27,383 bases of DNA from a virus (lineage: Duplodnaviria > Caudoviricetes), in IMG/VR virus record IMGVR_UViG_3300017740_000058, positions 1-27,383 of that record; one strand, written 5' to 3'. The stretch's first letter is position 1. Every line of letters begins with the position of its first letter. Shown here one piece after another: positions 4,403 through 25,431 of the stretch. Both the position numbers and the translations under genes were made by a program. The notes below the pieces were generated by a model. That model did not search any database and was not told the origin of the DNA. It saw only the letters and a program-made list of their open reading frames with translations.

Positions 4403-4416
4403 ACTTATCTTAGTTG

Positions 4417-4442: not shown

Positions 4443-4479
4443 CTTGAGTACAATTTCTGACGATCATTTTAACAAAGTC

Positions 4480-4487
4480 GATAAATA
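4480..4487 (+). promoter_or_regulatory. Putative late promoter GATAAATA
   Basis: Exact motif upstream of RBS GGAGA (4509-4513). Confidence 0.7.
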
Positions 4488-4517
4488 GTAGATACAGACA
4501 CAGAATATGGAGATATT

Positions 4518-4925
4518 ATGGTAACAGGAGAAAGAAGTGGAGCAATGGGAAGTTCGGAAGTTGTTTCCGGCAATATAGAATTTTATACTTTGTTTACCAC
4601 TATTAACATTACAAGCACAGGAGATTTTTCAGATAATACACAGAAAGACTTTGAAAGTGTAGTACAAGTGATAGGGTTAAGAGCACAACCAGTTGTTATG
4701 AATAATCCAGTTTCACTAAATGGAGTAGGAGCTCAGGTACTAGAAAATTATGGTGCACCAACACTAACAGGAGCAGGTTATATTTTTAAATTTGCTTTTG
4801 AAAGAGAAGGAGTCCATTCCATAGATACACTTAAAAATGAATTAAATGGAATAGTACTTAACGGTGGTACAATAGATACTACAAGTACAGTAAATATGGA
4901 ATTTAGTAAACAAGATTTATTATAG
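4518..4925 (+). CDS. Hypothetical protein, possible distant member of the MAQT family
   Basis: 135 aa; RBS present; size and composition similar to the MAQT proteins. Confidence 0.75.
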   Translation: MVTGERSGAMGSSEVVSGNIEFYTLFTTINITSTGDFSDNTQKDFESVVQVIGLRAQPVVMNNPVSLNGVGAQVLENYGAPTLTGAGYIFKFAFEREGVHSIDTLKNELNGIVLNGGTIDTTSTVNMEFSKQDLL

Positions 4926-5173: not shown

Positions 5174-5454
5174 GATTAGAAGAATTTACAGATGAGCCTA
5201 TTATAGAAGCCAGAATGGTTTGGCGTAAAATGGGTAACACAGTAAAACGTGCTATCAGATGTACAAGTGGTAGACGCAAAGGTAGAGTAGTGAGTAATCC
5301 TAGTCAATGTAATAAGCCTATAGATTTTAGAAAACGTTTAACAATGAAGAAAACAAAAGCAAGATTGGGTGCAAGAATGTCTAGACGAGCACAAAGAACT
5401 AAACGTTTTAATATACAAAGCAAAAGAGTAAAAGCACTTAATAAGAGAAGATAA
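5170..5454 (+). CDS. Very basic small protein with acidic N-terminal leader
   Basis: ATGA overlap at 5170-5173 gives MRLEEFTDEPIIEAR; the remainder is R/K-rich with two Cys. Confidence 0.75.
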   Translation: MRLEEFTDEPIIEARMVWRKMGNTVKRAIRCTSGRRKGRVVSNPSQCNKPIDFRKRLTMKKTKARLGARMSRRAQRTKRFNIQSKRVKALNKRR

Positions 5455-8400: not shown

Positions 8401-11400
8401 GAAGTGATGACAAGTATGAAGACGTAGCAAAAAGTTCTCTAATACAAAAATGTAGAACTAGATTAGACTATATAAAAGATCTACAAAACAGTGAACCAGA
8501 AAAGTATCAAAAAATTAAAACTAAACTAATAAAAATAGGTGAGACTCTTGTAGATACTATAGTTGCACCTGAAGATGGAGAAGGCATAGAAGGTGCTGAT
8601 ATTACTGATAAAGATGGAACAAATATAAGTGGATTTATAAAAGATCAATATAATAGGCAAGATAGTTGGTGTCTTAATTTACATCGTAGGGATTGGAATA
8701 ATACAAAGGATTTTCTAGCCAAATCAGGAGATAAAGACGACGACACATATAATTTTACTTCAGCATATGACGATTATGTTGTAAGAAATCCATTTAGTAT
8801 GGTTTTAGATTATTATAAAAGTAAAAGTGACTTCGCTAATATACATAAAAATTCAGAAGTTAAAAAGATTGTTAAAAATAACTTTGCAGGCTTTAAAAAG
8901 TTTTTTAATGAGTTTGATAAAATATTTACATCAGAAGGATTTACAGATCTTAAAGCAGAGATATCAGATAAAGACAGATACGATAAACGTAACAAAGACT
9001 TTGAAAAAAATGTTAGAGATAATGCTAAAGCCAAGTTAAATATTCCTAGTCATAGTTTTATATATTTCGATAAAGATTTTTGGGAAACACTCACAGACAA
9101 TAGTTATGCTGACAGAGGGCCATGGCTAGATAATAATTTAGATCATTTTGGAGATGACCTTAACAAAGAAGGTAAAATTTATGTTATACCTTCAGCACAT
9201 TGGTCACAGGCCGACGATGCATTTAATGGTTTGGATCTTATAAAGAATTTTGAAAATGCTAAAAATTATTTTCATACATGGCGTAGAATAGGATATAATA
9301 AAATACTCAGCAAGTTCATGGCCAAATATAATGTATCTTTTGAAAATCTTACAGATAGACAAGGTAAGTATATGTCTCAACCTGATAATATGGAATCAAC
9401 TTTAAGTGATTTTGCTATTGAGGTTACACATAAAGGTGATAGCAGATCCGGTGCGCCTGGGCAAGAAGATTTAGTTCCAACAGAAGATTTAGAAAATCCA
9501 AACAGTGGTGAGCCAATTAATAGAGGTTCTGCAATGATGTGGGATCAGAGTACAGACGATGCAGAGAAAAAACGTTTTGATGCATTTGATTGGGGATTGT
9601 ATCCAACAAAAATGAAAGATGTTGTTGCTAAAGAAATGGAAAACGAATCTAGTTTCCAACTGGCATTACAAAATGTACTACAGAAAGTTCTTGATAATAA
9701 AGTAGATATAGATCAAAATGATTTAGGCTTGCCTGATGAAAAAATTATGTATGCGGCTGGTGTAGATGGTAGCGAGTTAGAAGGTGAAGCATCAAATACT
9801 ATATCACAGAAAGCAAATTGGACTAACCTAGCAGATTATTTAAAATTAGAACGTGGTGTAAATGATCAGGGTGTAAACTTACTTAAAAAAGTACACAGTC
9901 AGTATGACAGTGACGGCCAAAAATATAGAACAAAAGACGATAATATTACTGTGGGAATGGAAAGATGGCTATTGGCTGTAAAAGATGCTATTAAATATAT
10001 AGAAACAAATTATAAAGTTAGTGGCGGTAACTATTTTAGAGATGGCGATGATGTAAGTGATGTACATAGTTCAACAACAGACCACGAAAGCGGAGTTGCA
10101 ATAGAAGATTACGATGAAATGCGTAGTAAATATTTTAATTTTAATGCTATGATGATGAATGGTATGCAAAATTATTTAGTACAAACAGATGTAAACAGAC
10201 TGGTAGGATTCCTTAAAAATCCAGACAATGATGAAGAATTTAAAAAGGATGTTTTACAAAGCATGATGAGAGAAAGAGAATTAGGAATGGAACCAAATGA
10301 CTTCCAAGGTGCATTAGCCAGGGGTAGAATGTATTCTCAACGTCAAAGAGAAAGTGTGTTTAATAGATTTGAAAATTTGCCTTTAGAGGAACAATTAACA
10401 ATTATATCTAAATCTAAAGTATTAGAAAATTTAAGTAAAAAAAGCGAAGGTCCATCTAGTGATGCTTTGCCAGACAATAGTATTCCTTATCTGCTTAATA
10501 AACTACTTGCTGAGCCTATGAAGGCAGGAGATCTTAGAAAGCAAATGGATGCATATTGGGCCTTACCAGTACCTCAAATGCTATCAGATTTTAGAGCCGT
10601 AAGAGCACAAGGCGGCAAAGAAGCAGATTGCAGAAATATTTTGAAGCAGTATATTAATTCACAACTAGATCCACAAATTAAAAAGCATGTAAAACTTGTA
10701 GAAAATAAAGATGATGTAATTGATAGAATAAAAGGACTACCAGATGAAGATAAGCAAACAGACAAAGTAGTTCAATATATAGAACAATTATTAGATGATA
10801 TGGGAGTAGGTGGTAGATTAGCCAGTTTGACATCTAATTTAGAAGATATAGATGACGAGGAAGTTAAAAAATCTAATGTAAAACTTGCTAAAATAATTTC
10901 AAGTATAGAAATGACACCATTAGAAAGAGCACAACTGTTTGCAAGTTGGAAACAAGATAAATTAATAGATGTTAAAAAATTACTTTCAGGTAATGGGCAA
11001 ACATTTAGTGAAGTATTTAAAGGGTATGGAGACGAAATTTATATGACAGAACTTATAGACGATTTAGCGGATGTAGATTCATATGGTATAGGTGCAGGAG
11101 AGTTTTTACTTGCAGTATTAAGTCAGAAAATAAAAGGTATTGGTTCAACAGGCGGTTCAGGAGATTTACTAATAGATGGTAGAAATGTAGAAGTAAAAAC
11201 AAAAACAAGCCGAAATGCTCGTTTTAAAGACTGGCATGTACAACCTGACCAAACATGGGCAAGTAAAGTAGAAAAATTTAAACAAGACTTTGCAGACATA
11301 GATGAGGTTTCAGGTGCGGCAACAACAGGAATGAACTCTACGCAATTAAGTGCTATGTTAAAAAATCCTGTATTGCAACAAAATCCTGAAAGGAAGAAAC

Positions 11401-11726
11401 AAGCATTATTAAGTATTATGGCTATATTTAAAGCAACTAATACTAACTTATCGTCAGCACAATATAAAGAATTAGTAAATTTATTAGATGCAGGAGATGA
11501 CTCAGCATTTAAACAAAAATATGGTGCATATAATATACTTAACTATTTAAATATTAAACGTAGTGATGGGGAATTAGAGGGTATATTATTCATGAATAAG
11601 AAAACTAAAACAGTTCATTATGTTAAAGATTTAAATGACATACAAAATTTAGCATTAGAGGTAGGAACAATTTATCCTATTAGTACAAATAGTATATATC
11701 CTTATCCTCAAATAGGAGTCAAATAA
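5454..11726 (+). CDS. Giant multidomain protein: putative amidoligase (COOH-NH2 ligase) domain and C-terminal PD-(D/E)XK-like domain
   Basis: 2090 aa. GFEAE (228-232), ELISP (465-469), GLH (499-501), IEFR (607-610); GIGAGE...GD1904-x8-E1913-V-K1915. Confidence 0.7.
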   Translation: MKFKDVKTLEHLLKEYGASSGGGAVGGGGHGASAKANKSKKSIASGPDVSTASPTVTGQPAQKPQQAKPSTNQVKAKDLQDGDMVVSKDGKTAEVYSKVGQGNNPSALITKDKQGNLAEIPKDETVDAIQPNKPGELDTIPDEKERTSFKDRIKQGMALGNKIAGVDEGKLGKLAKGKGRKLQIRKLKGKIKRLAKSKLKEANPKLFEINFNRKSVAREALDTPVKCGFEAETFFYNVEGGNSSHVDDMSIGDIEYEYGDLPDSAYEDYRSWLYDKGQEDYLDDLVADKIQEVKEDEDWLDEFIDSSSGPSSEAIERYKDDFQDADPKEYENREEDGWTYINWVREYVEEEYEDEYHEWLDGAVREDYNLDDEATEAAEQDYSMDDWVYDNYSYMSDFLNDYGYEYSDGGGDVEQVASELHTWAENNSKFTDFPESGDYGDTYTTTAWAVEKDSSIEPDEGTGAELISPVFDSPRKMLSEMKSLFDWSEENFGTNNSTGLHVTMSWNGEPDAPVDENGRREGQELNKLKMALLLGDPYLLAEFGRLRNSYTKSQYNNILKYAEGMKRGDANSLEEFEKMLSKGIDTGKFNTIHFKDDKDRDSNNKLIEFRIAGGADYNEMYEKVVKAVVRYATVMKAGYDKNAYRDDYVNAVFRLLRKSQEIDPKKLKDLEVVNHPIIDSAKEIVGKKDYFDVVRYLSNSVEYYNEYKNLSDPDADKKWKQSIKDYKKGTGRDPSWVGEAEEGESITGYIEPSSMPPSKRAEGRFQKSQESFINAVVILSRDIADGITRGSVRAKDISIFRDYSKQLELDDKKLQGLALRQLNDQNYNGTDKENIARLKKGIDTLFKRDIIQEPGFMSHQDVDVILKQLWQFFQTDDSDDYHKRVELADLLIGANPNMAGLGNNKDDDEKHGLVMDFLQEISHTRQLNTFVAKLRGSGYGNYITPIESGKMTNQDEVESLKKFLEPYGGYDHPTSKDHHINIRSDDKYEDVAKSSLIQKCRTRLDYIKDLQNSEPEKYQKIKTKLIKIGETLVDTIVAPEDGEGIEGADITDKDGTNISGFIKDQYNRQDSWCLNLHRRDWNNTKDFLAKSGDKDDDTYNFTSAYDDYVVRNPFSMVLDYYKSKSDFANIHKNSEVKKIVKNNFAGFKKFFNEFDKIFTSEGFTDLKAEISDKDRYDKRNKDFEKNVRDNAKAKLNIPSHSFIYFDKDFWETLTDNSYADRGPWLDNNLDHFGDDLNKEGKIYVIPSAHWSQADDAFNGLDLIKNFENAKNYFHTWRRIGYNKILSKFMAKYNVSFENLTDRQGKYMSQPDNMESTLSDFAIEVTHKGDSRSGAPGQEDLVPTEDLENPNSGEPINRGSAMMWDQSTDDAEKKRFDAFDWGLYPTKMKDVVAKEMENESSFQLALQNVLQKVLDNKVDIDQNDLGLPDEKIMYAAGVDGSELEGEASNTISQKANWTNLADYLKLERGVNDQGVNLLKKVHSQYDSDGQKYRTKDDNITVGMERWLLAVKDAIKYIETNYKVSGGNYFRDGDDVSDVHSSTTDHESGVAIEDYDEMRSKYFNFNAMMMNGMQNYLVQTDVNRLVGFLKNPDNDEEFKKDVLQSMMRERELGMEPNDFQGALARGRMYSQRQRESVFNRFENLPLEEQLTIISKSKVLENLSKKSEGPSSDALPDNSIPYLLNKLLAEPMKAGDLRKQMDAYWALPVPQMLSDFRAVRAQGGKEADCRNILKQYINSQLDPQIKKHVKLVENKDDVIDRIKGLPDEDKQTDKVVQYIEQLLDDMGVGGRLASLTSNLEDIDDEEVKKSNVKLAKIISSIEMTPLERAQLFASWKQDKLIDVKKLLSGNGQTFSEVFKGYGDEIYMTELIDDLADVDSYGIGAGEFLLAVLSQKIKGIGSTGGSGDLLIDGRNVEVKTKTSRNARFKDWHVQPDQTWASKVEKFKQDFADIDEVSGAATTGMNSTQLSAMLKNPVLQQNPERKKQALLSIMAIFKATNTNLSSAQYKELVNLLDAGDDSAFKQKYGAYNILNYLNIKRSDGELEGILFMNKKTKTVHYVKDLNDIQNLALEVGTIYPISTNSIYPYPQIGVK

Positions 11727-12247
11727 TGCATATTAGAGAAGTTTTCGATAACATGGACAGAAATACAAAATTAATGAGAGACCTTGTACAGCAGGAAATC
11801 GATAAGAAAAATTTAAAAACACCAGAAGAGATTAAAAAATATATTATAGGCCTCAAACTTGCAGGTTTAGTTCAATACAAAGAAGATATTATTACATTAT
11901 TTAAATATTTTGGATTACCAATCAAATTGAATGCAGAAGCCGGTGGCGGTGGCGGTGGCGGTGCCGGAGGTGGTGCTGGTGGCGGTGCTGGTGGCTCAGG
12001 AGGAGCCGGTGCTGGTGCAGGAGCAAGTTCAGGCGGTGACGGTGGTTCAGCAAGTTCAAGTGGAGACAGCGGGTCTGCAGATGGTGGTAGTTCAGGAGAT
12101 AGTTCTACTTCATCATCCGCTGATTCCACACCTACACCTGTAAGCAGAGGGTATGCATTTTTAGGAAGTATGTCGCCTTACAAAAAGAAAAAGAAGAAAA
12201 AGAAAAAAAGTAAGAAAAACTTTGATTTCGGTAAAGGCGTCTACTAA
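11726..12247 (+). CDS. Gly/Ser-rich low-complexity protein with poly-Lys tail
   Basis: 173 aa; TAATG coupling to the upstream gene; poly-G/A/S tract, then KKKKKKKKKSKK. Confidence 0.7.
   Translation: MHIREVFDNMDRNTKLMRDLVQQEIDKKNLKTPEEIKKYIIGLKLAGLVQYKEDIITLFKYFGLPIKLNAEAGGGGGGGAGGGAGGGAGGSGGAGAGAGASSGGDGGSASSSGDSGSADGGSSGDSSTSSSADSTPTPVSRGYAFLGSMSPYKKKKKKKKKSKKNFDFGKGVY
11935..12125 (+). repeat. Low-complexity GC-rich GGN/GCN/TCA codon tract
   Basis: GGTGGCGGTGGCGGT... encodes the Gly/Ala/Ser run. Confidence 0.7.
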
Positions 12248-12249
12248 AA

Positions 12250-14013
12250 ATGAAATTATTTGAACTGGAAGACAGACCTGAATTGGATAAAGTGTTTCCC
12301 AGAAGCATAATGCCACAAGTCAGAAAAAATAACCTTGAAGATTCTGGTTATGAGTTTGAAAAGAAAAAAATAAAATTAAGTAAAATTAAACCTGTACAAG
12401 ATCAAAGAGTACAGGGTATGCATGATAGAGCATTAAAAGGATTTCAAGACGGCAGTATTAGGCCTATAATTATAGACAAACATAATTATATTGTTAATGG
12501 GCATCACAGATACGATGTTGCCAGAAGTTTAGATTTAGATAAAGTAAAAGTTCTTAAAGTAGATGCAACAATAGAAGAACTAATAGATCATTATAGTGAT
12601 AAAACTAGTGATGCTCCCACAATAGAACAACAACTTAAATCAAAGTTACAGCAAAAACTTAAAGAAATTCATAGTGCTAAACCATATGATAATATGGACG
12701 ACAATGGATTAATAAAATTTAGATATGAAGATGCAACATCTGATCCACAGCCATTTGGAGAAGATGCACATTTAAAATTAGCACCTATACCAGGAATATC
12801 CAGAAATGAAGTATATGATAATGGAGTTTCTAGACATATATTCCTTATGAATAATAAAGAACCTATATTTTTACTTACTATAAAAAAACAATTGGACGGT
12901 TGGGTTACAACAAATGTAGTTACTCACAGTAATTACAGAGGAAAAGGATTTGCTGTGCCTGTTTACTTAGCAGTTAGTAAAGCATATGGAGAACCACTTT
13001 ATAGTTTTGGAACACAGAGTCCTGGAGGACATAAAATTTGGCAAAATCTTGCAAAACAACATCCAAAAAGAGTAACTGGATATGATACAGTATCTAAACA
13101 AGAGGTTCCATTCGCTGATGTTTTTGATGGAAAGGTAGCCACTAGAGCAAAACTACTACCAGAAAGTATTCAACGAAGAGATTGCTATGAGGCGGCAGTA
13201 AAACAAATGTTAGAGTATGCTAAAGAAAATCCTGCTATGGTAAACTCATTAAGCCTTGTTCATGGATATGTAACCGGCCAAGCCAGTTATGTAAAAGACC
13301 AACGTTATGGACACGGTTGGTTAGAAATAGGCGATGTAGTACAAGATTGTACTAATAATGCTGTAATGAGGAAAGAACAATATTATAAATTAGGAAATAT
13401 CAATCCTGATGAATTAAAAAAATATTCGTATAAAGATGTTTTACAAAAAATATCTACTACTAAACATTATGGGCCTTGGGATTTAGAAAAAACAGAATTT
13501 GAAAAAGGCATTGAAGAAGATGTTGTGGGTATGAATCCAAGTGCCAAGAAGCCTTACTTTTCACCACAAGAAGCAGACAGAGCCAATAATGAATGGGTAA
13601 ACCAAGCACAGGTAGATCAAGGAGACGGTGTTATAATAAAAGCCACAGACGGCAAACAATATCGTATAATGACCAGTTATGGCAATCAACATTTTGAGGA
13701 TGGTGAAGTTTACTTAGATGGCATTACTGATGCTGGATTTATAGACCCAGAAGGCTACCCGGATGCCGCAGAACTGTTATACTATCATAGTGCTACAGGA
13801 CATTATCCTGATGATGAGGAATATGAAGTACAAGAAAACTTTAAAGACGGTAAAAAGAAAGGTAAAAGTCGTCCAGGCAGAGTAAAGAAAGCAGGTGCCA
13901 GTTGCAATGGCTCAGTTACAAGTCTACGCAAAAAAGCAAAAAACAGCAGTGGTGAGAAGTCCAAAATGTATCACTGGTGTGCCAACATGAAGGCTGGCAG
14001 AAAGAAAAAATAA
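12250..14013 (+). CDS. Multidomain protein: ParB/Srx-like + GNAT-like + Cys-His-Asp (transglutaminase/papain-like) + basic tail
   Basis: PIIID...NGHHR (G84), YRGKGFA (229-235), C312...H355-G-W...D366. Confidence 0.65.
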   Translation: MKLFELEDRPELDKVFPRSIMPQVRKNNLEDSGYEFEKKKIKLSKIKPVQDQRVQGMHDRALKGFQDGSIRPIIIDKHNYIVNGHHRYDVARSLDLDKVKVLKVDATIEELIDHYSDKTSDAPTIEQQLKSKLQQKLKEIHSAKPYDNMDDNGLIKFRYEDATSDPQPFGEDAHLKLAPIPGISRNEVYDNGVSRHIFLMNNKEPIFLLTIKKQLDGWVTTNVVTHSNYRGKGFAVPVYLAVSKAYGEPLYSFGTQSPGGHKIWQNLAKQHPKRVTGYDTVSKQEVPFADVFDGKVATRAKLLPESIQRRDCYEAAVKQMLEYAKENPAMVNSLSLVHGYVTGQASYVKDQRYGHGWLEIGDVVQDCTNNAVMRKEQYYKLGNINPDELKKYSYKDVLQKISTTKHYGPWDLEKTEFEKGIEEDVVGMNPSAKKPYFSPQEADRANNEWVNQAQVDQGDGVIIKATDGKQYRIMTSYGNQHFEDGEVYLDGITDAGFIDPEGYPDAAELLYYHSATGHYPDDEEYEVQENFKDGKKKGKSRPGRVKKAGASCNGSVTSLRKKAKNSSGEKSKMYHWCANMKAGRKKK

Positions 14014-14025: not shown

Positions 14026-15174
14026 ATGTCCAAATACGGTAAAAAACCACTTTCATCTACACAACAACGATTAAAAGATTATCAATTAGGAATTTATCAT
14101 AATGCAAATGCCAAATGGGCAAACGAACTAAGAGTATTAGGTAAAAATCCACAAGACGATAACAAATACGATATTGATTTAGACTTAATGAAGGAAACAA
14201 TCATTAAAGATTGTGCAAACTATCTTCCTTTAGAAGACCATGGCGGAAAAGAATTGCAGAATAGTGATTACTCAGTATCTTGCCAATGGTATCCAAGTGA
14301 TACAAAACATCTTTTTGAAAGTAATATGGCAGATCCAACTACAAAATCACTTATGAATAAAATAGGGTGGTGCGACGAAAATAATAATCCAACACAGGTA
14401 ATTTATAATTTAGATAAAAATGGTTTTAGGTGTAAAGATTTTAAGCAGGAGAGAGGGAAAGGAATATTATTTTTAGGATGTAGTCATACATTTGGAGTAG
14501 GTTTAAATCAACAAGATACATTTGCTTTTAAAGTAGCAAACCACTTTGACAAGGAATGTTTTAATTATGGTATGCCAGGAAAAGGATTAGATACTGCGGC
14601 TTTATATACATCTTTATATTTGCAAGATGACATTGATGTAGGCTACATAGATGCAGTTGTAGTTTACTGCCCGCCACCAGGAAGGGTTAGTTATTTTAGT
14701 TATAATACTGAATATGATATGGGTAGAGGGTACAATGAATTGGAGTTTCTCCAACTTCAAAATGATTATTTATTGCTAACTGACTATTATGATGACTCAT
14801 ATCTAGATAATGTACCATATGATGAAATGGCAGATATTGAAGAATTGTTTAATCTTAAAAATGCAAAAAGTAAATACGAAGTAAAAAAATTTTTAAAAGC
14901 AGGATTAGATCAACATGTTTATAAACATAGATCTGCTATGTGGGAACATTTTATGTTTACAAAAGAAAATAATTTTTACCGAGGACTACTTGCAGTAAAC
15001 AGTATTAAAAGTTTTTGCTTGGAGAATAATATTCCATTAGTATTAACAGAAGGGTCACCAACGATTTCTACTAAACATGATTGGGCAAGGGACTTAGGAC
15101 ACTTTGGACCACAAACCCATAACAATATAGCACAAGAAATTATTTCTAAGTTAGAGATATATCTAGATAAATAG
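14026..15174 (+). CDS. SGNH/GDSL hydrolase-like protein
   Basis: ILFLGCSHTFG (S153, block I), NYGMPG (block II), D356-L-G-H359 (block V). Confidence 0.7.
   Translation: MSKYGKKPLSSTQQRLKDYQLGIYHNANAKWANELRVLGKNPQDDNKYDIDLDLMKETIIKDCANYLPLEDHGGKELQNSDYSVSCQWYPSDTKHLFESNMADPTTKSLMNKIGWCDENNNPTQVIYNLDKNGFRCKDFKQERGKGILFLGCSHTFGVGLNQQDTFAFKVANHFDKECFNYGMPGKGLDTAALYTSLYLQDDIDVGYIDAVVVYCPPPGRVSYFSYNTEYDMGRGYNELEFLQLQNDYLLLTDYYDDSYLDNVPYDEMADIEELFNLKNAKSKYEVKKFLKAGLDQHVYKHRSAMWEHFMFTKENNFYRGLLAVNSIKSFCLENNIPLVLTEGSPTISTKHDWARDLGHFGPQTHNNIAQEIISKLEIYLDK
15166..15173 (+). promoter_or_regulatory. Putative late promoter GATAAATA
   Basis: Exact motif, 5 nt before ATG 15179. Confidence 0.7.
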
Positions 15175-15178
15175 TATT

Positions 15179-15526
15179 ATGCTTATTAAGGACATAATTA
15201 ACGAAACAACCAGTAGTGGCGGTATAGCCAGTGTGGCAGTACCAATGAATAGTGATATTATAAAACGACCTGGTCCCGTAGTTAAAAAGAAAAAGAAGAA
15301 AACAACAGAAGATCAAGTTCCATATTTGCAGAGACCCAACTCACCATATGAATTAGGAAAGCAAGAATACCTACGTAAGAATCCAGGCAAAACAGAAGAA
15401 GATTTCAAAGAGTTATTGCCCAATCAACAAAACAAATACTTGGACAAGTATGTTGAAGGAAAATCTCCACACAAAAAAGGCACCAAAAAATATAAAAAAC
15501 ACATGGCGGCCATGCACGCCGGTTAA
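15179..15526 (+). CDS. Small Lys-rich protein, candidate internal virion protein
   Basis: MLIKDIINE leader; KKKKKK and KKGTKKYKK tracts. Confidence 0.75.
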   Translation: MLIKDIINETTSSGGIASVAVPMNSDIIKRPGPVVKKKKKKTTEDQVPYLQRPNSPYELGKQEYLRKNPGKTEEDFKELLPNQQNKYLDKYVEGKSPHKKGTKKYKKHMAAMHAG

Positions 15527-16186: not shown

Positions 16187-17488
16187 ATGTTTATTAGAGA
16201 TTTTAATCAGCAAGGACAAAATAAAATAACAAAAATTAACAAACTGTTAAGCGAAGAGTTTGGCATGAGTATCAAGTCATCTTATCCTAAAAAGGAAAAG
16301 TTACAGACTATACTCGAGATGTCAGATAAGGCTATAATTAAATTGAAAGATACTACAAAAAACTTTCAGTTAGAGCCTGAATATGCAAAATATCTTGGTA
16401 TTAAAGATGTTATGAAAACTATGATTAGTGAAGGCATGTATGCTGAATCACCAGCATACGTGGAAATGAAAGAAAAACTTTGTGCAGAAGTTCAAAACTT
16501 AATGGATTCAGGTTGTACTGAATCTGAAGCAGTAAGCCAATGCATGAACACATTCAGAAAAAATCCTAATTACTGCCACGATGATGAACACATACTTCCT
16601 ATTGTTATGATGGCGGCTAAAGATTACATGGAAGGTGGTTGTGGTACACATGAATCACTAGAAGAGATTGCAACAGAAGGTCCAGATTCAGAGTTAAACG
16701 AAAAACTTCTAAGTGAACTTGCTAAAGAGATTGGTATAGAATTAACAAATCATGACAGCATGAGTGCAATAGAAGAAAAACTTAATATGTTTGCAGAAGT
16801 TACAGGCAAGAGCAGAGATTCAGTTGTTGGATTTTTGAATGGACTTGAAGAAGATGCAGTAGTACAAGGTATTAAGTTCTTTGGTGCTAAAGTTAGAGAA
16901 TCAAATGCATTTGTAGATGCTAGAAGAGAAGCAATTAAAAATGACGAAGATGAGTTTACAGTAGGTGGAAAAACTTACAAAGTTACAGGCGATACATCAG
17001 ACGAAAAGAAAAACGAAAGTATGTTTGACAGTATTATAGACGAAATGCTTTCAGAAGAAGTTGAGTCAGTTGAAGAAGCAGAAGTTGTAATGGCTGTTAG
17101 AGCATTAGCAGACGATATTCAAGATCATGTAGAAAGACTAGGCAGAATGGTAAACGAAGATTTACCTGCAATAGCAGACCAAATGGTAAATGAATTTGGT
17201 GCTGATAAGGCCGCTTCATTTAAAAGCGAAGCAGAGGGTGTTTTATCAGGAGCATTAGAAAGTGCCAAACAGGCAAAAGATGGTGTTAATAGTCTAGTTG
17301 GAAGTATTACTGGTGAAGATATGGGTCTAGGCGGAGACGACATGGGTAGCATAGAAGATCCATTAGGTGCAGACAGTCCAATAGATGACATGGAAGAATT
17401 ACCAGCAGAACCTGAAATGGATGTAAACGAACCAGCGGCGGCAGGACCAGAAGAAGAGCCACTAGGTAGAGCACCTGTAGAGGTGTAA
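16187..17488 (+). CDS. Acidic helical protein, possible prohead core/scaffold-like protein
   Basis: 433 aa; E/D-rich with many L/I-x-E sites and an acidic Pro-rich tail. Function is inference. Confidence 0.6.
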   Translation: MFIRDFNQQGQNKITKINKLLSEEFGMSIKSSYPKKEKLQTILEMSDKAIIKLKDTTKNFQLEPEYAKYLGIKDVMKTMISEGMYAESPAYVEMKEKLCAEVQNLMDSGCTESEAVSQCMNTFRKNPNYCHDDEHILPIVMMAAKDYMEGGCGTHESLEEIATEGPDSELNEKLLSELAKEIGIELTNHDSMSAIEEKLNMFAEVTGKSRDSVVGFLNGLEEDAVVQGIKFFGAKVRESNAFVDARREAIKNDEDEFTVGGKTYKVTGDTSDEKKNESMFDSIIDEMLSEEVESVEEAEVVMAVRALADDIQDHVERLGRMVNEDLPAIADQMVNEFGADKAASFKSEAEGVLSGALESAKQAKDGVNSLVGSITGEDMGLGGDDMGSIEDPLGADSPIDDMEELPAEPEMDVNEPAAAGPEEEPLGRAPVEV

Positions 17489-17490
17489 AA

Positions 17491-17841
17491 ATGCTCATTA
17501 ATGAGGTTATAGCAGTACAGGAAAAAGATCAGGATTTTGCGGCAGGGTTGTTAGCAAAAGTACAAGATATCCTTACAGTTGCTATGTCCAGAGATATTAA
17601 AAAAATATCTACAAAAAAATTCCTTAAAATTTTAGACGTAAATGGTTATACAGATTTAACTATGGACCAACTAAAGTTAGCAGTCAATACATCTGGATTT
17701 GCTAACAGTATAGATGATGAAACTATTGTACCTAAAGATGAGTTAGGTGCAGATATAGATACTGATGTTGAAGATCCATCAGTAGATGTAGGGGCAATGG
17801 CAGGTGATCAGGCCCTAGCAGATATTAAGGCGGAACTATAA
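17491..17841 (+). CDS. Hypothetical acidic protein
   Basis: 116 aa; tightly coupled to neighbouring genes. Confidence 0.75.
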   Translation: MLINEVIAVQEKDQDFAAGLLAKVQDILTVAMSRDIKKISTKKFLKILDVNGYTDLTMDQLKLAVNTSGFANSIDDETIVPKDELGADIDTDVEDPSVDVGAMAGDQALADIKAEL

Positions 17842-18161
17842 TGGCTAATATTTTTGTAAATGCCACACAGGCAAGAGCGGATAGCAGGAATAACGTAGTT
17901 ATTCATGGTGAAATTAAAACTATCGAATCAGAGGTCTTCTCTAATATAGATTCAGGCATACTATATGCAAATATAGTATCCAGTTCAACTATGACAAACA
18001 GTAATGTCTATTACTATGTTTGGAATGGTACAACAACAGATCCCACAAAACTAGATCAAATAAATTATGTTAAAAAATACTTCACAGACTTAGGTTATGG
18101 AGTAAACATAAAAACAAATACTAGTTCAAATAATACTATTACTTGGAACGTTTCCTGGTAA
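17841..18161 (+). CDS. Hypothetical protein
   Basis: 106 aa; TAATG coupling; N/T/S-rich. Confidence 0.75.
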   Translation: MANIFVNATQARADSRNNVVIHGEIKTIESEVFSNIDSGILYANIVSSSTMTNSNVYYYVWNGTTTDPTKLDQINYVKKYFTDLGYGVNIKTNTSSNNTITWNVSW

Positions 18162-18164
18162 ATA
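18157..18164 (+). promoter_or_regulatory. Variant late promoter GGTAAATA
   Basis: One mismatch; shares TAAATAGTATTA with the 15166 site. Confidence 0.45.
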
Positions 18165-18193
18165 GTATTAACAAATAACTTAAAACAATTTTA

Positions 18194-18871
18194 ATGCTAA
18201 AAAACAAATTCGAATACCCTGCTCTGCGAAGAGAAACCCAAGCAAATGGAAAAAGACAATACGTTGGTGACGACAGTATTCCTGTTCCTAGTGTAACTAC
18301 AGTACTAAGCGAAACCGGAGATAAAACAGCTCTACTTAACTGGCGTAAACGTGTAGGTGACGCAGAAGCAAATCGTATAAGTCAGGAGGCGGCAGGTTTA
18401 GGTACTAAAGTACACAATGCAATAGAAAAATATGTATTAAGTGAAGAGTACGAAATAAAAGGTAATAATCATATAAGCATAATGGCTAAAAATATGCTAC
18501 AAGAAATGATAGACCAAGGCCTAAGTAAAGTGGACGAATTATGGGGTGTTGAAGTAGGTTTAATTGCCGCAGGATTATATGCAGGTACATCAGATGCTAT
18601 TGGCATATACGAAGGCGAAGATGCTATTATAGATTTTAAAACAGCCAAGAAGATTAAAAAACGTGAGTGGATAGAAGATTACTTTATGCAAGGTTGTGCT
18701 TATGCATTAGCACATAACGAAATGATGGGAACGGAAATTAGTAAAGTTGTAATACTAATGGTAGACCGAGAAGGCAAGTTTGCAGAGTTCTCTATTAAAG
18801 ATCAAGAATTTGAGGAATATTGCGATAAATGGTCAAATAGACTAGCAGATTATTATTCCAAAATTAAATAA
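18194..18871 (+). CDS. PD-(D/E)XK exonuclease (Cas4/RecB/MGME1-like phage exonuclease)
   Basis: PSVTTVL, GTKVH, E...YAGTSD, IIDFKT (D147-F-K149), Q-x-x-A-Y. Confidence 0.85.
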   Translation: MLKNKFEYPALRRETQANGKRQYVGDDSIPVPSVTTVLSETGDKTALLNWRKRVGDAEANRISQEAAGLGTKVHNAIEKYVLSEEYEIKGNNHISIMAKNMLQEMIDQGLSKVDELWGVEVGLIAAGLYAGTSDAIGIYEGEDAIIDFKTAKKIKKREWIEDYFMQGCAYALAHNEMMGTEISKVVILMVDREGKFAEFSIKDQEFEEYCDKWSNRLADYYSKIK

Positions 18872-18883
18872 AGGCCAAAAAAT

Positions 18884-18891
18884 GATAAATA
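18884..18891 (+). promoter_or_regulatory. Putative late promoter GATAAATA
   Basis: Exact motif; RBS AGGAGA at 18901-18906. Confidence 0.75.
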
Positions 18892-18914
18892 CTACTTAAT
18901 AGGAGACGTATTTA

Positions 18915-21044
18915 ATGGCAACAAGTAACAATACAGTAGTAGTATCAAGAATACAAAACCGTAGAGGTTTAAAGCAAGACCTACCTCAGCCACTTCGTTC
19001 TGGTGAAATTGGTTTATCAACCGATAGCAGACAAGTTTTTATTGGTGGTGGTGAAATTGACTCTACAGAAAATAAAGTATTGATATTTGAAAATACTGAT
19101 AACGCAAGACAAATTGTGGACAGTATTGCCAAAAATCAAATTATAAGTTTTACAGTACCACATAGACGTTATAACACCAGTTTAGATGGATTAAATGGAA
19201 CAGCAAAAGCCTTTACATATACTGGTGGTTCAGATGTTAGTGACACAAACAGTTCAAGAGATGTATTTAGAAGTTCAGTAGGAGCAGGAAATCTTGTTAG
19301 TATAGAAACAGGTTCGGCTTTTGATGCCGACGATTTAAGTGTAGTAAAAAACGGTATAGCACTTATAGGAAACAATATAGCAAGTATTGGTAACTTAACT
19401 ACTGAGGACTATATTTTCTCATCAGGTACAAGTTTAGGTAATGATCATACTATAACTTTTAAATCTATTCCATTAACAAGTGATGATATAGGTATTACTT
19501 ACTATGGTAATTCCGCAATTAGCAGAGTATTAAGTGGTGCACCAAGTGGTGATGCTAATATTAAACCAGGATATAGTGCATTAACAAATTTTTATGCTAG
19601 AGATAGTGTACCTACATTTTTGCAAATACCTGAAGACTTAATTATTGTTAATTCGACTACAGGTTCAGGATATATAGGATTTCAGCATAAACATATAGCA
19701 GTTACGGCCCTAAGTACTTCAGATGTAAGTACTTTAACATTTACAAATTTCTTAGTAAGTAAAGATAGCGAATTAATTGATAATATAACATTTGCAGAAT
19801 CTTCAGATACGTTTACAGTACCTTATGCTCATGCAAATCAAAAGTATGTTCCAACTTCAACAGCAAATAATTTTAACCGTGTTCATATATCAAATTGTAG
19901 TGTTTCAGCAGTAAACGGTGTTCACAATATTACTGCCGCAAATGCCACACATTTCCAGTTTGCAATTAGTGGATATAGTGGTGCTACAAGTGGTACACTA
20001 GCTCACACAAGAGTTTTACAGTATGATATATCTGGTGCACCTAGTAGTGGCGATATTACTACTTCTTTAAATACTATTTCAGGAATTATTAATAATAGAG
20101 GAAACATTACAACAGGTTCTAACGTAACGCAATCATGGGGTAGTTTAAATGTTACACCAGAGTTTGATTCAGCAACAGGTAGTGCATTAGCATCAAAGCA
20201 AGTGTATTTTACTCATAAGTCTACTCAAAATAGTAACCCAGCAAACTTTACATTACACGAAAGTGGTAGCACATTAACAAATTTAAAACTTACACCACAA
20301 AATTATAATAGATCAACTAATACTATAAGAGCTCAATTAGAGCAGTTTTTAGTAGAAGCAATGGAAAATGTAAACCTTAATGTATTTAATAATATTCAAG
20401 TAAATCAAAGATATAAGGCTAATTCTACTTTAGATGCAAAAATTAATTCATATAATTTAAATACAAATACAGAAGGCACAGAAATTACATTTGATACTAA
20501 TGAAGAAGCCAGAAACTTCTCAACATTAGTAAACAACTTATATTTTGAATACAATGTTTATAATACACCTGGTTCAGGTGGCTTAGGAAGTCTAGTTGTC
20601 AACTCACGTGGTTTAACAAATGTAAAAAATAACATTCAGTTACAAACTGCCGAGGGTGCCTCAAGTGGATTACCTGATGTAGGATATGACTCAACAGAAA
20701 CAGCAAGTGTACCAGCAGAAGCAAATACTAACATTAAAACATTTGATATGACTGCTTTTGATACTTTCGTAATAGATTACAGTTTAGACTTTAGAAATGG
20801 TGCAGACTTATACAGAAAAGTTGGATTACTTCAATTGTCCAGTTATGATTATGGATCAGGAAATCCTGCAGATGTAGTCATACAGGATTATGGTACTGAC
20901 AAAGCACTTGGTAGTGTAACAGGAAATGTACAGTTCACAGCAAATGTGGCTAGTAGTGTATTAACTCTCACAGCAATAAGTAGTGTAAACCAATCTTGTG
21001 CCATGAAATACATTGTTAGAAAATGGAACGCACCTTCAACATAA
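18915..21044 (+). CDS. Virion structural / tail-fibre-like protein with Mtd_N-like N-terminus
   Basis: RIQNRRG...P-L-RSGEIG...D...VFIG head motif; S/T/N-rich, beta-type body; 709 aa. Confidence 0.65.
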   Translation: MATSNNTVVVSRIQNRRGLKQDLPQPLRSGEIGLSTDSRQVFIGGGEIDSTENKVLIFENTDNARQIVDSIAKNQIISFTVPHRRYNTSLDGLNGTAKAFTYTGGSDVSDTNSSRDVFRSSVGAGNLVSIETGSAFDADDLSVVKNGIALIGNNIASIGNLTTEDYIFSSGTSLGNDHTITFKSIPLTSDDIGITYYGNSAISRVLSGAPSGDANIKPGYSALTNFYARDSVPTFLQIPEDLIIVNSTTGSGYIGFQHKHIAVTALSTSDVSTLTFTNFLVSKDSELIDNITFAESSDTFTVPYAHANQKYVPTSTANNFNRVHISNCSVSAVNGVHNITAANATHFQFAISGYSGATSGTLAHTRVLQYDISGAPSSGDITTSLNTISGIINNRGNITTGSNVTQSWGSLNVTPEFDSATGSALASKQVYFTHKSTQNSNPANFTLHESGSTLTNLKLTPQNYNRSTNTIRAQLEQFLVEAMENVNLNVFNNIQVNQRYKANSTLDAKINSYNLNTNTEGTEITFDTNEEARNFSTLVNNLYFEYNVYNTPGSGGLGSLVVNSRGLTNVKNNIQLQTAEGASSGLPDVGYDSTETASVPAEANTNIKTFDMTAFDTFVIDYSLDFRNGADLYRKVGLLQLSSYDYGSGNPADVVIQDYGTDKALGSVTGNVQFTANVASSVLTLTAISSVNQSCAMKYIVRKWNAPST

Positions 21045-21050
21045 TGATTG

Positions 21051-21482
21051 ATGTTCCTAAAAACGCATAGTCCCACAGAAAGATTAAGAATTTGGAGAGA
21101 GATAAGACAAAAAGATTATCTGTCTGCAGAAGACCTTGTAAAAGAATTTTCAGATATTAAAATACTTTCACGTTACTTAGATTACTATACTCCTAAAAGT
21201 TGGCCTGATCCTTTTGAAATTGTTAGCGAAGGATATTTTTGTCAAACAGGCGTAACAATATTACTAACTGCTACACTAATAAATAAAAATTTCATTACTA
21301 GCGACGAGTTATGCTTTCCAGTGATAAGTAATAACATAAACGGAGACTCTGGAATAGTTCTTTTAGATGATAACAACGTTTATAATTTTACTTCAGGTAA
21401 GATTGAAAGTTGGGAGTTTGTACAGGATAATGCAACTGTATTTCAAACCCACAGATTAGATAAAAAGAAACTTTCATATTGA
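21051..21482 (+). CDS. Hypothetical protein
   Basis: ATG at 21051 (the track begins at TTG 21048); WPDPFEI...YFC motif. Confidence 0.75.
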   Translation: MFLKTHSPTERLRIWREIRQKDYLSAEDLVKEFSDIKILSRYLDYYTPKSWPDPFEIVSEGYFCQTGVTILLTATLINKNFITSDELCFPVISNNINGDSGIVLLDDNNVYNFTSGKIESWEFVQDNATVFQTHRLDKKKLSY

Positions 21483-21507
21483 CTTTTGTACAGTTATATA
21501 GTAGAAT
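21479..21507 (+). promoter_or_regulatory. Sigma70-type promoter upstream of nrdA
   Basis: TTGACT (21479-21484), 17-nt spacer, TAGAAT (21502-21507). Confidence 0.65.
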
Positions 21508-21515
21508 AATTCTGC

Positions 21516-21523
21516 GATAAATA
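21516..21523 (+). promoter_or_regulatory. Putative late promoter GATAAATA upstream of nrdA
   Basis: Exact motif in the intergenic gap. Confidence 0.65.
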
Positions 21524-21559
21524 TTACTTTACAATACAGAAATTAGGGATAATACACAC

Positions 21560-23848
21560 ATGCAAGTTAAAAAACGAGACGGCACACTAGAAGATTTAAA
21601 CATAGACAAGTTACACAAAGTAGTTATGTATGCATGTGAAGACATCTCAGGTGTTAGTGCATCAGAAGTAGAGATAAACTCCAAAATTCAGTTCTTTGAA
21701 TCAATAGCAACAGAAGATATTCAAGAGACACTTATTAAAAGTGCCGCAGATTTAATCACTGAAGAAGCACCAAACTATCAATATGTAGCAGGTAGACTTA
21801 TTAACTATCATTTGCGTAAAATGGTATATGGTGAATTTGAGCCTCCTTGCTTATGTGATATAATACAAAAAAATATTGATCTAGGTTTTTATGATTCTGA
21901 GTTTACTGATTTATATACAAAAGAAGAAATAAATCAATTACAAGAATATATAGATCATAACAGAGATGAAGTTTTAACCTATGCGGCTATGGAACAATTC
22001 CGTGGTAAGTATCTAGTACAAAACAGAGCAAGTGGTGAAATATTTGAAACACCACAAGTAGCATACATGATGATTGCGGCCACATTGTTTAGTAACTATC
22101 CAATAGAAAACAGAATGAGCTATGTAAAAGCCTATTATGATGCTATTAGCACATTTAAAATTTCCTTGCCTACGCCAGTTATGGCAGGTGTTAGGACGCC
22201 ACAAAGACAATTTAGTTCATGTGTACTAATTGAAACAGATGACAGTTTAGATAGCATTAATGCAACAAGTAGCAGTATTGTAAAGTATGTAAGTCAGAAA
22301 GCAGGTATCGGCATTGGTGCTGGTAGTATTAGAGCCGTAGGCTCCAAAATTAGGAGTGGAGATGCAACTCATACAGGAGTTATTCCATTCTATAAAATGT
22401 TTCAGTCAGCAGTTAAGAGTTGTAGCCAAGGTGGAGTAAGAGGCGGAGCCGCTACATTATACTACCCTATTTGGCATTTGGAAGTTGAGGACTTATTAGT
22501 ATTAAAGAACAATAAGGGCACAGAGGACAACAGAGTGCGTCACATGGACTATGGTGTACAGTTTAATAAACTAATGTATGAAAGATTAATTACTGGCGGA
22601 AATATTACTTTGTTTAGTCCACAAGATGTGCCAGGATTATATGACTGCTTCTTTAATGATCAAGACAAATTTAAAGAGTTATACGAAAAAGCAGAACGTA
22701 TGACAAGTATTAGAAAAAAATCTATACCAGCATTAGAACTGTTTAGTAATTTTGTTACAGAAAGAAAAGACACAGGTAGAATATACTTAATGAATGTTGA
22801 TCATGCAAATGATCATGGTGCATTTATATCTGATATAGCACCTGTAAAACAAAGTAATCTTTGCTGTGAAATAGATTTACCCACAAAGCCCTTAACAGAC
22901 ATTAACGATCCTGAAGGCGAAATAAGTTTATGTACATTAAGTGCTGTAAATTGGGGTGTTGTAAAAGATACAACAGAGATACAAAAAGTATGTAATTTGG
23001 CAGTAAGAGGATTAGATGAGTTACTAGATTATCAAGAGTATCCTGTTTTAGCGGCACAATATAGCACTATGAACAGACGCCCACTAGGAGTTGGTATAAT
23101 TAATTTCGCATATTGGTTAGCAAAAAATGATACCACTTATCAGGAGCCTAACTTAGATTTAGTAGATGAATGGGCAGAAGCCTGGAGTTATGGTCTTATA
23201 AAAGCAAGTGCCGACTTGGCAGTAGAGAAAGGTGCATGTCCTAAAAATATGGAAACAAAATATGGGCACGGTATTACTCCTAACCAAACATATAAAGAAG
23301 ATGTAGATGATTTAGTAAAGCATAAAGAAAGGCAAGATTGGAAAGGATTAAGAAAACAATTAAAAGAAACAGGAATCAGAAATAGTACACTAATGGCATT
23401 AATGCCTGCAGAAACATCTGCACAAATTAGTAATAGTACAAATGGTATTGAACCTCCACGAAGTTATGTAAGTATCAAGCAAAGTAAACATGGAGTATTA
23501 AAGCAGGTAGTACCAGGATATCCTTATTATAAAAACAAATATGATTTATTATGGGAACAGAAGTCTCCACAGGGTTACTTAAAAATTATGGCAGTATTAC
23601 AAAAGTATATTGATCAAGGTATTAGTGTAAACACTAGTTATAACCCTGAACATTACGAAGATGAGAAGGTTCCAATGAGTGTTTTAATACAAGATATACT
23701 GATGTTTTATAAATACGGTGGCAAACAATTATACTATAATAATACCTACGATGGTCAGGGCGAAATTGATATACATAAAGATGACGCTCAAGAAGACCTC
23801 GCCATCACTGAAATAGATGATGAAGATTGTGAGAGTTGTAAGATATGA
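21560..23848 (+). CDS. nrdA: Ribonucleoside-diphosphate reductase class Ia, alpha subunit
   Basis: N-terminal ATP cone (VKKRDG), FSSCVL, QSNLCCEI, SLCTL, KQLYY and C-terminal CESCKI. Confidence 0.97.
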   Translation: MQVKKRDGTLEDLNIDKLHKVVMYACEDISGVSASEVEINSKIQFFESIATEDIQETLIKSAADLITEEAPNYQYVAGRLINYHLRKMVYGEFEPPCLCDIIQKNIDLGFYDSEFTDLYTKEEINQLQEYIDHNRDEVLTYAAMEQFRGKYLVQNRASGEIFETPQVAYMMIAATLFSNYPIENRMSYVKAYYDAISTFKISLPTPVMAGVRTPQRQFSSCVLIETDDSLDSINATSSSIVKYVSQKAGIGIGAGSIRAVGSKIRSGDATHTGVIPFYKMFQSAVKSCSQGGVRGGAATLYYPIWHLEVEDLLVLKNNKGTEDNRVRHMDYGVQFNKLMYERLITGGNITLFSPQDVPGLYDCFFNDQDKFKELYEKAERMTSIRKKSIPALELFSNFVTERKDTGRIYLMNVDHANDHGAFISDIAPVKQSNLCCEIDLPTKPLTDINDPEGEISLCTLSAVNWGVVKDTTEIQKVCNLAVRGLDELLDYQEYPVLAAQYSTMNRRPLGVGIINFAYWLAKNDTTYQEPNLDLVDEWAEAWSYGLIKASADLAVEKGACPKNMETKYGHGITPNQTYKEDVDDLVKHKERQDWKGLRKQLKETGIRNSTLMALMPAETSAQISNSTNGIEPPRSYVSIKQSKHGVLKQVVPGYPYYKNKYDLLWEQKSPQGYLKIMAVLQKYIDQGISVNTSYNPEHYEDEKVPMSVLIQDILMFYKYGGKQLYYNNTYDGQGEIDIHKDDAQEDLAITEIDDEDCESCKI

Positions 23849-24330
23849 ACAGTAATGAATTAAAACAATTAGGTTTTACCAAGGCAGGTGATGTTGATGT
23901 AGTTATCAGAAATGATGTACCAGACTTAAATGCTACACATACACCATTTGCAAGTGAAGTAAAGTCAGGGGTATATTGTTGGGTACTTGTAAACGATACT
24001 AATAAAAAAGAAGAAGTAATTTATATAGGTAAATATGGAAAGTCTATAAAAAAGAGATGGGGAGAACACAGGCAAGGTTTCAGAGGTGGTAGTGGTACAG
24101 GTATCAAAAATGCAGAATACATTATACAGCAATTAGCAGAAACTGATATCAGAATGGAATTATGGGGTAAGCAGAGTCATATTGAAGAATTTTCTTATAC
24201 TAATATTGTAGGCACAGAAATAACAAAAACTTTTTCTACCTATAGTGTAGATGAAGAAGATTTAATAGCATTCTATATGCAAAAGAACGGAAAAAGACCA
24301 GCACTTAATAGGACAAAAGGCGGAAATTAA
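23845..24330 (+). CDS. Free-standing GIY-YIG family endonuclease
   Basis: GVY (42-44), YIG (60-62), R71, H75, later EED and PALN; ATGA overlap with the nrdA stop. Confidence 0.8.
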   Translation: MNSNELKQLGFTKAGDVDVVIRNDVPDLNATHTPFASEVKSGVYCWVLVNDTNKKEEVIYIGKYGKSIKKRWGEHRQGFRGGSGTGIKNAEYIIQQLAETDIRMELWGKQSHIEEFSYTNIVGTEITKTFSTYSVDEEDLIAFYMQKNGKRPALNRTKGGN

Positions 24331-24333
24331 AAA

Positions 24334-25431
24334 ATGACAGTATTAGATACAAAAAATAAGAAACATCATACTAAAGCAAAGATGTTTTTAGATCCATCAG
24401 GCGGTCCTGTTGTACAAAGGTATGACACACTAAAGTATAAACAGTTTGATAAACTAACTGATAAACAGTTGGGCTTCTTTTGGAGACCAGAGGAAGTTGA
24501 TATCCTTAAAGACGCAACCGACTTTAAAAATCTTACAGACTTTGAACAGCATATTTTTACAAGTAATTTAAAGCGACAAATCATACTTGATAGTGTACAA
24601 GGTCGCTCACCTAATCTGGCTTTTCTGCCTATAGTAAGTCTACCAGAATTAGAAACCTGGATAGAGACTTGGGCATTTAGTGAAACTATACACAGTAGAA
24701 GTTATACACATATTATTAGAAACGTCTATCCTGACCCAAGCAAAGTTTTTGATACTATGTTAGACATACAAGAAATATGTGATTGTGCAGATAGTATTAC
24801 AGAAAATTATAACAAACTAATTGAATATAATCTTTTAAGAGACAAAGGTTATAAAACATATGATGAATATGAACATAAGAAAAGAATATGGTTAGCATTA
24901 ATGAGTGTAAACATATTAGAAGGTGTACGTTTTTATGTTAGTTTCGCATGTAGTTGGGCTTTTGCAGAACTTAAAAGAATGGAAGGTAACGCAAAAATAA
25001 TTAAACTTATTGCCAGAGACGAAAATGTACACTTAGCAAGTACACAACAGATGCTAAAATTTTTACCAAAAGACGATCCAGACTTTGAGAAAATAAGAAA
25101 AGAAACTTATGAAGAATGTACACAAATGTTTGTAGATGCAGTAGAGCAGGAAAAAACATGGGCAGAATATTTGTTTAAAGACGGAAGTATTATAGGCCTT
25201 AATGCAGAACTATTAAAGCAATATGTAGAGTTTATCGCGGCCAAACGAATGCATGCCGTGGGTCAGGAGAAGATATATAATAGTGGTACCAATCCATTAC
25301 CTTGGACTCAAGCATGGATTACAGGTGGATCAGTACAAGTTGCTCCACAAGAGACAGAAATATCATCATACGTTATAGGTGGTACCAAACAAGACGTTGA
25401 TGGAGACACATTTAAAGGTTTTAGTTTATAA
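24334..25431 (+). CDS. nrdB: Ribonucleoside-diphosphate reductase class Ia, beta subunit
   Basis: FFWRPEEV, LDSVQGR, ETIHSRSY, LEGVRFYVSF, RDENVH, APQETEISSY. Confidence 0.97.
   Translation: MTVLDTKNKKHHTKAKMFLDPSGGPVVQRYDTLKYKQFDKLTDKQLGFFWRPEEVDILKDATDFKNLTDFEQHIFTSNLKRQIILDSVQGRSPNLAFLPIVSLPELETWIETWAFSETIHSRSYTHIIRNVYPDPSKVFDTMLDIQEICDCADSITENYNKLIEYNLLRDKGYKTYDEYEHKKRIWLALMSVNILEGVRFYVSFACSWAFAELKRMEGNAKIIKLIARDENVHLASTQQMLKFLPKDDPDFEKIRKETYEECTQMFVDAVEQEKTWAEYLFKDGSIIGLNAELLKQYVEFIAAKRMHAVGQEKIYNSGTNPLPWTQAWITGGSVQVAPQETEISSYVIGGTKQDVDGDTFKGFSL

Follow-up and report, generated by a model that had tools for sequence, protein, structure and literature searches.

A shuffled five-module gene of a PA5oct-related phage as a candidate for protease-processed internal head cargo

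Described head cargo and multidomain proteins

Internal proteins of phage T4 are loaded by a 10-residue leader, the head protease gp21 cuts after L/I-X-E, and leader fusions were delivered into the cell, according to the accessible text of one report (PMC9026906), which also states that Asp blocks processing; the leader described here has D at position 8. The likeness of our locus to T4 IPI, IPII, IPIII and Alt, as these are presented in the accessible literature, lies in a short basic/acidic N-terminal leader, in hydrophobic-x-E sites, in small basic products and in the T4-type head genes of the phage group, which include a gp21 homologue. The differences are that in T4 terminal propeptides are removed from single cargo proteins, whereas here the sites stand between several unrelated, shuffled, folded modules, and that the leader has 8 residues as against 10 and P3 includes V and M.

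Polyvalent proteins, as described in the accessible part of Iyer et al. 2017 (PMC5512222), have variable architectures with ParB-like and GNAT domains and are encoded near virion genes, as here. Their processing is ascribed in that text to embedded metallopeptidase domains, none of which was seen in the window protein, whose modules are small and are joined at a recurring head-protease-type motif. The hallmark domains of polyvalent proteins (MPTase, MuF, ArdC, SWI2/SNF2, DdrB-like ParB and N4 RNAP) gave no Pfam match in the window protein; a weak ddrB-ParB match (E 0.013) was found in another module of a relative, P0012. The original prediction had drawn the parallel with these proteins, which holds for unrelated domains in one polypeptide near virion genes but is an analogy only, as the mechanism fits T4 internal proteins.

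In the ejection proteins gp175 and gp245 of phiKZ/SPN3US, several head-protease cuts after Glu are reported for one protein. These phages belong to another group, and the cuts, after A-X-E or S/A-X-E, remove and fragment propeptides; those mapped in SPN3US remove propeptides in the accessible text of PMC10052503, and nothing in the accessible accounts describes them as releasing a row of swappable enzymes. Orthologues of gp21 and GNATs have been noted for jumbo phages (PMC7824862, accessible text). T4 leaders with gp21 and polyvalent proteins are already known, and the present locus would be a variant of T4-type head cargo. The literature searched contained no account of shuffled strings of several enzymes with head-protease sites at their joints, a statement limited to accessible text, since subscription journals and the supplementary files of PMC5512222 and PMC7824862 could hold cases. 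The locus adds exact swaps between nearly identical relatives, the correction of one border and a fold for one module.

The five modules and their exchange among relatives

The window, i.e. the whole stretch of DNA analysed, comprises 27,383 nucleotides from a virus record estimated to be 14% complete. One gene of this marine giant phage (Table 1) strings together five modules that can be interchanged: a ParB/Srx-like, a GNAT-like, a Cys-His-Asp, an acidic and a basic one. Translation bore out the ORF, motifs and residue positions originally proposed, with GHHR, RGKGFA, C312, H355 and D366, as well as L-K-E139, F-G-E171, L-P-E305, I-E-E423 and V-Q-E529, all at the places given for them in the 587 residues. 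The protein has 39 Glu and 8 hydrophobic (L/I/V/F/M)-x-E motifs in all (E5, 110, 139, 171, 305, 322, 423 and 529), five of which had been quoted. The string is real DNA and not an assembly chimera because contigs from independent runs, those not marked as a possible source, match it without a difference: X12 and X13 (possibly a single data set) over 12051-13791, and X11 over 12051-13618 and 13779-13959 (0 differences to the window in each case). At least half of the words of the gene were present in 14 of the 24 sequencing runs listed.

Table 1. Features of the modular gene and its surroundings (positions in the window)
Feature	Position	Strand	Basis
Upstream gene, Gly-rich module fused to SOD/ParB modules in relatives	11726..12247	+	L002, L044, L110, by eye
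Five-module polyprotein gene, 587 aa	12250..14013	+	ORF; same DNA in independent runs
Leader MKLFELED, appears to resemble the T4 capsid-targeting sequence	12250..12273	+	Family pattern, 50 complete relatives
Module 1, ParB/sulfiredoxin-like, aa ~9-139, GHHR; short helical spacer aa ~127-139	12274..12666	+	PHROG 620
E139 (L-K-E), module border and likely cut site	12664..12666	+	GNAT module starts here
Module 2, GNAT-like, aa 140-305, RGKGFA	12667..13164	+	ESM Atlas score 0.93-0.94
E171 (F-G-E), internal to GNAT module, no border	12760..12762	+	Alignments run through
E305 (L-P-E), module border and likely cut site	13162..13164	+	Swaps in P0008/P0009, P0010
Module 3, Cys-His-Asp, aa 306-423, C312/H355/D366; predicted minimal papain/transglutaminase-like deamidase or peptidase	13165..13518	+
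E423 (I-E-E), module border and likely cut site	13516..13518	+	DNA break in L251
Module 4, acidic, aa 424-529, net charge -16, no family assigned	13519..13836	+	Moves as unit
E529 (V-Q-E), module border and likely cut site	13834..13836	+	Insertion in P0001/P0002
Module 5, basic tail, aa 530-587, net charge +18	13837..14010	+	82-97% identity across otherwise unrelated proteins
Core block, gene order as PA5oct gp237, gp239-gp244 (virion proteins, exonuclease, ribonucleotide reductase)	16187..25431	+

The leader follows a family pattern, M-K/R-x-x-E/D-L/I/F-x-E, with K/R at position 2 in 46, E/D at position 5 in 37 and L/I/F at position 6 in 43 of 50 distinct complete relatives. Position 8 is E in 23 of these and D in 9; the window copy has the Asp together with an L-F-E5 motif, so that its leader may remain attached to module 1 or be cleaved at E5. 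Module 1 matches PHROG 620 (E 2.6e-9) and other ParB PHROGs and has the GxHR motif with its conserved Arg; Pfam ParB_N was reached at E 0.02, below the cut-off, and PDB 5k5d at E 0.022. On these profile matches the module probably belongs to the ParB/sulfiredoxin superfamily. For module 2 the ESM Atlas score refers to phage N-acetyltransferase clusters; a distant relative, L158, matches Pfam GNAT below the cut-off (E 0.001-0.004), and the window copy gave no direct Pfam or PDB match. The acetyl-CoA motif A of GNATs is R/Q-x-x-G-x-G/A. The module had been placed at aa ~172-303, a span that had to be corrected, as it starts right after E139.

Module 3 folds alone in the predicted structure (pLDDT 95) with a papain-like fold; it is the one module that could be folded well, and it falls between E305 and E423. 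Its Cys, His and Asp are present in 148, 149 and 147 of 150 relatives (about 98%), and in 64 aligned relatives C and H are invariant and D is conserved in at least 90%. By its modeled fold, module 3 is a minimal papain/transglutaminase-like domain. Its family comprises 3,275 clusters of putative minimal Cys-His-Asp enzymes, for which Pfam has no separate model; the predicted activity is that of a deamidase or peptidase. NTAQ1 N-terminal glutamine amidohydrolase, LapG and protein glutaminase have a papain/transglutaminase-like Cys-His-Asp fold, as does module 3, but the identity is 8-11%, with ~110 residues only and Foldseek E > 0.1. Among the 150 distant relatives of module 3, 12 of the 15 with a leader and an internal domain have the hydrophobic-x-E motif at most 20 residues ahead of the Cys (3.6 expected), as do 31 of the 68 without (16.8 expected). 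Members of the family (P0020-P0168) also occur in proteins that do not have the window-type leader and in tandem copies, and in P0129, P0130 and P0137 they stand behind leaders close to the T4 type.

Scanning viral contigs gave 593 relatives, 80 of which were retained; another 19 came from two protein searches. A fixed module order, which the original prediction had named as a refutation, is not seen among them: near relatives have modules inserted, deleted or rearranged at, or directly beside, E139, E305, E423 and E529. The GNAT module, from position 140, directly follows a 6-residue leader in P0013/P0014 and sits behind other modules in P0008, P0009 and P0019. P0008/P0009 join E305 directly to the basic tail, with modules 3 and 4 deleted (E305 to E529), and P0010, which does not have module 3, leads from E305 to the acidic module via a 4-residue spacer ending in V-Q-E. 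The Glu of E305 is kept in 8 of 9 distinct downstream contexts; P0011 and P0012 lost L-P-E305, and a V-Q-E comes 4 residues later. The acidic module, directly behind an E in 9 of 13 distinct contexts, travels as a unit in P0003-P0006, where it is placed before module 3, and in P0009-P0012, P0015-P0019 and L002. P0001 and P0002 are 87% and 94% identical to the window protein over aa 1-530 and have ~208 extra residues at E529. The ends of modules also finish in hydrophobic-x-E, and the basic tail, likely a DNA-binding peptide, stands alone behind the leader in L030, L045 and L070.

Breaks are seen at the DNA level at the codons of E139, ~T298-E305, E423 and E529. Identity to L249, counted per 20 codons, is 54-60 of 60 over aa 1-140, falls from 59/60 to 33/57 at E139, lies between 33 of 57 and 55 of 60 over aa 141-300 and returns to 59-60 of 60 over aa 301-420. 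L251 ceases to be homologous directly behind the E423 codon and is homologous again from the E529 codon on. In some cases the crossover precedes the Glu by a few residues and falls in a shared stretch (T298-E305, with a blind breakpoint at 299). Compared with P0003, P0004 has 73 additional residues between direct-repeat copies of ~11 residues; the repeat includes a Glu joint, and the arrangement points to insertion by short-homology recombination.

Five Glu sites had been proposed as domain borders, and the proposal stands for E139, E305, E423 and E529. E171 is ruled out as a border, since homology is continuous in 14 of 14 alignments (motif kept in 8) and the GNAT module begins at 140; a segment with E171 is deleted in P0008/P0009 at 87% identity. 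As to whether domains span the proposed sites, module 3 is well folded between two of them, but the GNAT module does span E171. As E110, E171 and E322 are inside domains, the motif alone marks no border.

Breakpoints were also mapped blindly, from loss of sequence identity alone, in 97 related proteins and were collapsed to 215 contexts. An (I/L/V/M/F)-x-E motif lay at most 2 residues from the breakpoint in 81 of the 215 against 18.7 expected, a 4.3-fold excess beyond all 300 randomisations (maximum 36), in a set that was chosen by likeness to the window protein, is rich in tail-module joints and consists of relatives that are not phylogenetically independent. Other residues gave no excess at the 215 breakpoints (xD 23 vs 26.3, xK 20 vs 31.6, xQ 13 vs 11.8), and 1,250 ordinary proteins of the same loci gave 96/581 vs 83.6 expected, a figure inside the null range. 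A second set, with 114 other leader-bearing proteins, showed no excess of the motif either (10/56 vs 8.9 expected), which gives no support for applying the rule to all leader-bearing proteins. The blind junctions in the window protein fell at 140, 299, 422 and 528; weak ones lay at 128 and 161, and 171 had none. Hydrophobic-x-E is common by chance, as the original prediction cautioned, but at the borders it is more frequent than chance predicts.

The joint before the basic tail allows a closer look at the motif. In 74 of 78 distinct proteins it fits the search pattern, with Glu directly upstream in all 74. Among 59 distinct upstream 8-mers, P1 is E in 59/59, P2 is diverse, P3 is I/L/V/M/F in 47/59 (background 23%; 20 different codons over all residues) and P4 is hydrophobic in 8/59. 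This P1/P3 pattern matches the L/I-X-E rule given for T4 gp21 in the accessible text of PMC9026906, although P3 is V or M at many joints, which is wider than L/I.

Phage group and head protease

Genes at 4518, 16187, 17841, 18194, 18915 and 21048 match PA5oct gp234, gp237, gp239, gp240, gp241 and gp242 in the same order (BLASTP E 5e-20 for gp237, 7e-19 for gp239, 3e-56 for gp240, 2e-12 for gp241 and 6e-11 for gp242), and ribonucleotide reductase follows in both the window and PA5oct. The gene at 16187 matches 11 records of PA5oct-like Pseudomonas jumbo phages. The shared order of the core block, many genes of which are marked ESI-MS/MS in PA5oct, places the phage in a PA5oct-related group. In a 275-kb relative (G001) the tail sheath is closest to Atu_ph07 and the PA5oct group.

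PA5oct gp152 was described as a prohead scaffolding protein and protease in the accessible text of PMC7318152. It matches phrog_207, the PHROG of T4 gp21, at E 2e-58. In an alignment of 9 sequences, gp152 and T4 gp21 have in common invariant His, Ser and Asp, which we take to be the catalytic residues. At the position of L-T-E in T4 gp23, where T4 has its cut, the group's capsid proteins carry L-A-E or a similar motif. A complete genome of 374 kb (G055) carries the protease, a capsid protein with L-A-E and a basic tail behind L-K-E; in this tail-bearing protein (L243:1495-2160) the tail is fused behind a domain with an HAE...PC motif, which we assume to be a zinc-dependent deaminase. Among 10 long protease-bearing genomes, 6 have a homologue of the gene at 16187 and only 2 have a module of the window protein, namely G055 (tail) and G051 (weak GNAT match). 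A gp21-type protease was absent from the window and from 48 contigs of close relatives, all of which are incomplete (5-26%, one 77%); the positive control was found.

In PA5oct, 148 genes of 462 features were examined for leaders. Proteins with a strict leader were marked in virion mass spectrometry in 5 of 6 cases, as against 56/142 of the others, which is not significant (p 0.08); with a relaxed pattern 7 of 8 were positive (p 0.009), the pattern having been chosen after looking. PA5oct gp205 is MS-positive, starts with MKLFE like the window protein and shares two PHROGs with P0007, a relative that carries module 3 at its end.

Proposed processing, alternatives and neighbouring genes

We consider it probable that the gene encodes an internal head cargo polyprotein that is loaded by its leader, cut by a gp21-type protease after E139, E305, E423 and E529, and ejected as separate products. 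A single N-terminal leader would load the polyprotein into the prohead, where the T4 gp21-type protease of the phage would cut at the four joints. As three or four motifs are internal (E110, E171 and E322, with E5 in the leader), selective cutting must be assumed, and folding may protect these motifs. This would yield five products of 6-19 kDa, whose small size would let them exit together with the DNA; the basic peptide may be bound to DNA inside the head, and the released enzymes would act on host targets early in infection. Shuffling would proceed by recombination in short shared stretches at the joints, e.g. the RAKLLPE segment, with a cuttable site at each joint likely kept by selection. 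We infer targeting, cutting, ejection and every enzyme activity, ejection and the host targets being the least supported steps.

The products could instead be packaged and cut but stay in the head or be cleared from it, as core or scaffold or for neutralisation of DNA charge or protection of DNA. A Cu/Zn superoxide dismutase module in relatives (P0016, Pfam Sod_Cu E 4e-45), the charges of the tail (+18) and the acidic module (-16), and the clearing of multiply cut propeptides from SPN3US heads (PMC10052503, accessible text) speak for such a role. We find it unlikely, since the intact Cys, His and Asp in about 98% of 150 relatives of module 3, together with the rapid turnover of modules, fit host-directed enzymes better, and T4 leader fusions were delivered into the cell (PMC9026906, accessible text). 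Similarly improbable is that the protein works uncut, in the manner of polyvalent multidomain proteins, with the Glu motifs as fusion scars or recombination hot spots. Modules that stand alone directly behind the leader (L030, L045, L070 and P0013) mean that fusions could inherit the site, the P1 codon is GAA in 56 of 59 contexts compared with 85% for Glu overall, and crossovers fall in shared stretches. However, P3 comes from the unrelated upstream module and is still hydrophobic in 47 of 59 contexts, encoded by many different codons and with no such constraint at P2, module ends also close with hydrophobic-x-E, and scars would decay.

That the joints are cut by the embedded Cys-His-Asp domain itself or by a host protease has in its favor the papain-like fold of that domain and the proposal, in the accessible text of PMC5512222, that embedded peptidases process polyvalent proteins. 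Self-processing is nonetheless very unlikely: module 3 is found in only 11 of 97 related polyproteins, the joints being the same throughout, and the joint motif agrees with the site in the group's capsid propeptides. Barely credible, and already largely refuted, is an origin of the border motifs by chance or from Glu-rich linkers: 3 of the 8 motifs are inside domains and a mild excess of E extends several residues around the breakpoints, but chance does not account for a 4.3-fold excess that lies beyond 300 randomisations and is missing for xD, xK and xQ and in ordinary proteins.

If head cargo is the correct reading, abundant ocean jumbo phages would diversify their injected cargo with one tag and one protease for an open-ended recombining set; the released enzymes would be candidate early effectors to test against bacterial defences, and the gene would show a natural way of bringing several proteins into a phage head from a single gene. 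The joints would also serve as ready-made domain borders for hundreds of unannotated modules. More tentatively, and with less confidence than for the locus itself, the three-residue rule of the head protease may be a universal joint in a widespread group of T4-related jumbo phages for a recombining, injected, swappable counter-defence kit. That kit would be drawn from a library shared across the population, comprising SOD, ParB-like, GNAT and phosphatase-like modules, ~110-residue Cys-His-Asp deamidases of a large family and basic peptides; the pieces would be strung behind one loading tag and separated by cutting in the head.

Further observations concern neighbouring genes. The product of 11726-12247 has a Gly/Ser-rich low-complexity module, which starts directly after L-N-A-E, and then a poly-Lys run. 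The gene at 5454-11726 encodes a 2,090-aa protein with the same type of leader as the 587-aa protein and with no Pfam, PHROG or NCBIfam match; its relatives share the first 1,650 residues and differ in a nuclease-like C-terminal part. Inside the cargo block, 14026-15174 is leaderless and has a G-C-S-x-T motif, presumably that of an SGNH-like hydrolase; relatives have one or two diverged copies in its place. By eye, the gene at 15179-15526 is also modular, with 80-100 residues inserted in relatives at Glu joints before a final short basic peptide (L103:6404-6988 and L109:3859-4503). In P0013/P0014, again by eye, the GNAT module and a relative of module 3 precede a domain resembling the product of 1712-2536, an arrangement that points to insertion of cargo modules into a core gene as well. 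Four short genes lie in a row at 3192-4925; three of them start with MAQT, the last matches the PA5oct virion protein gp234, and the four are possibly paralogous head or decoration proteins.
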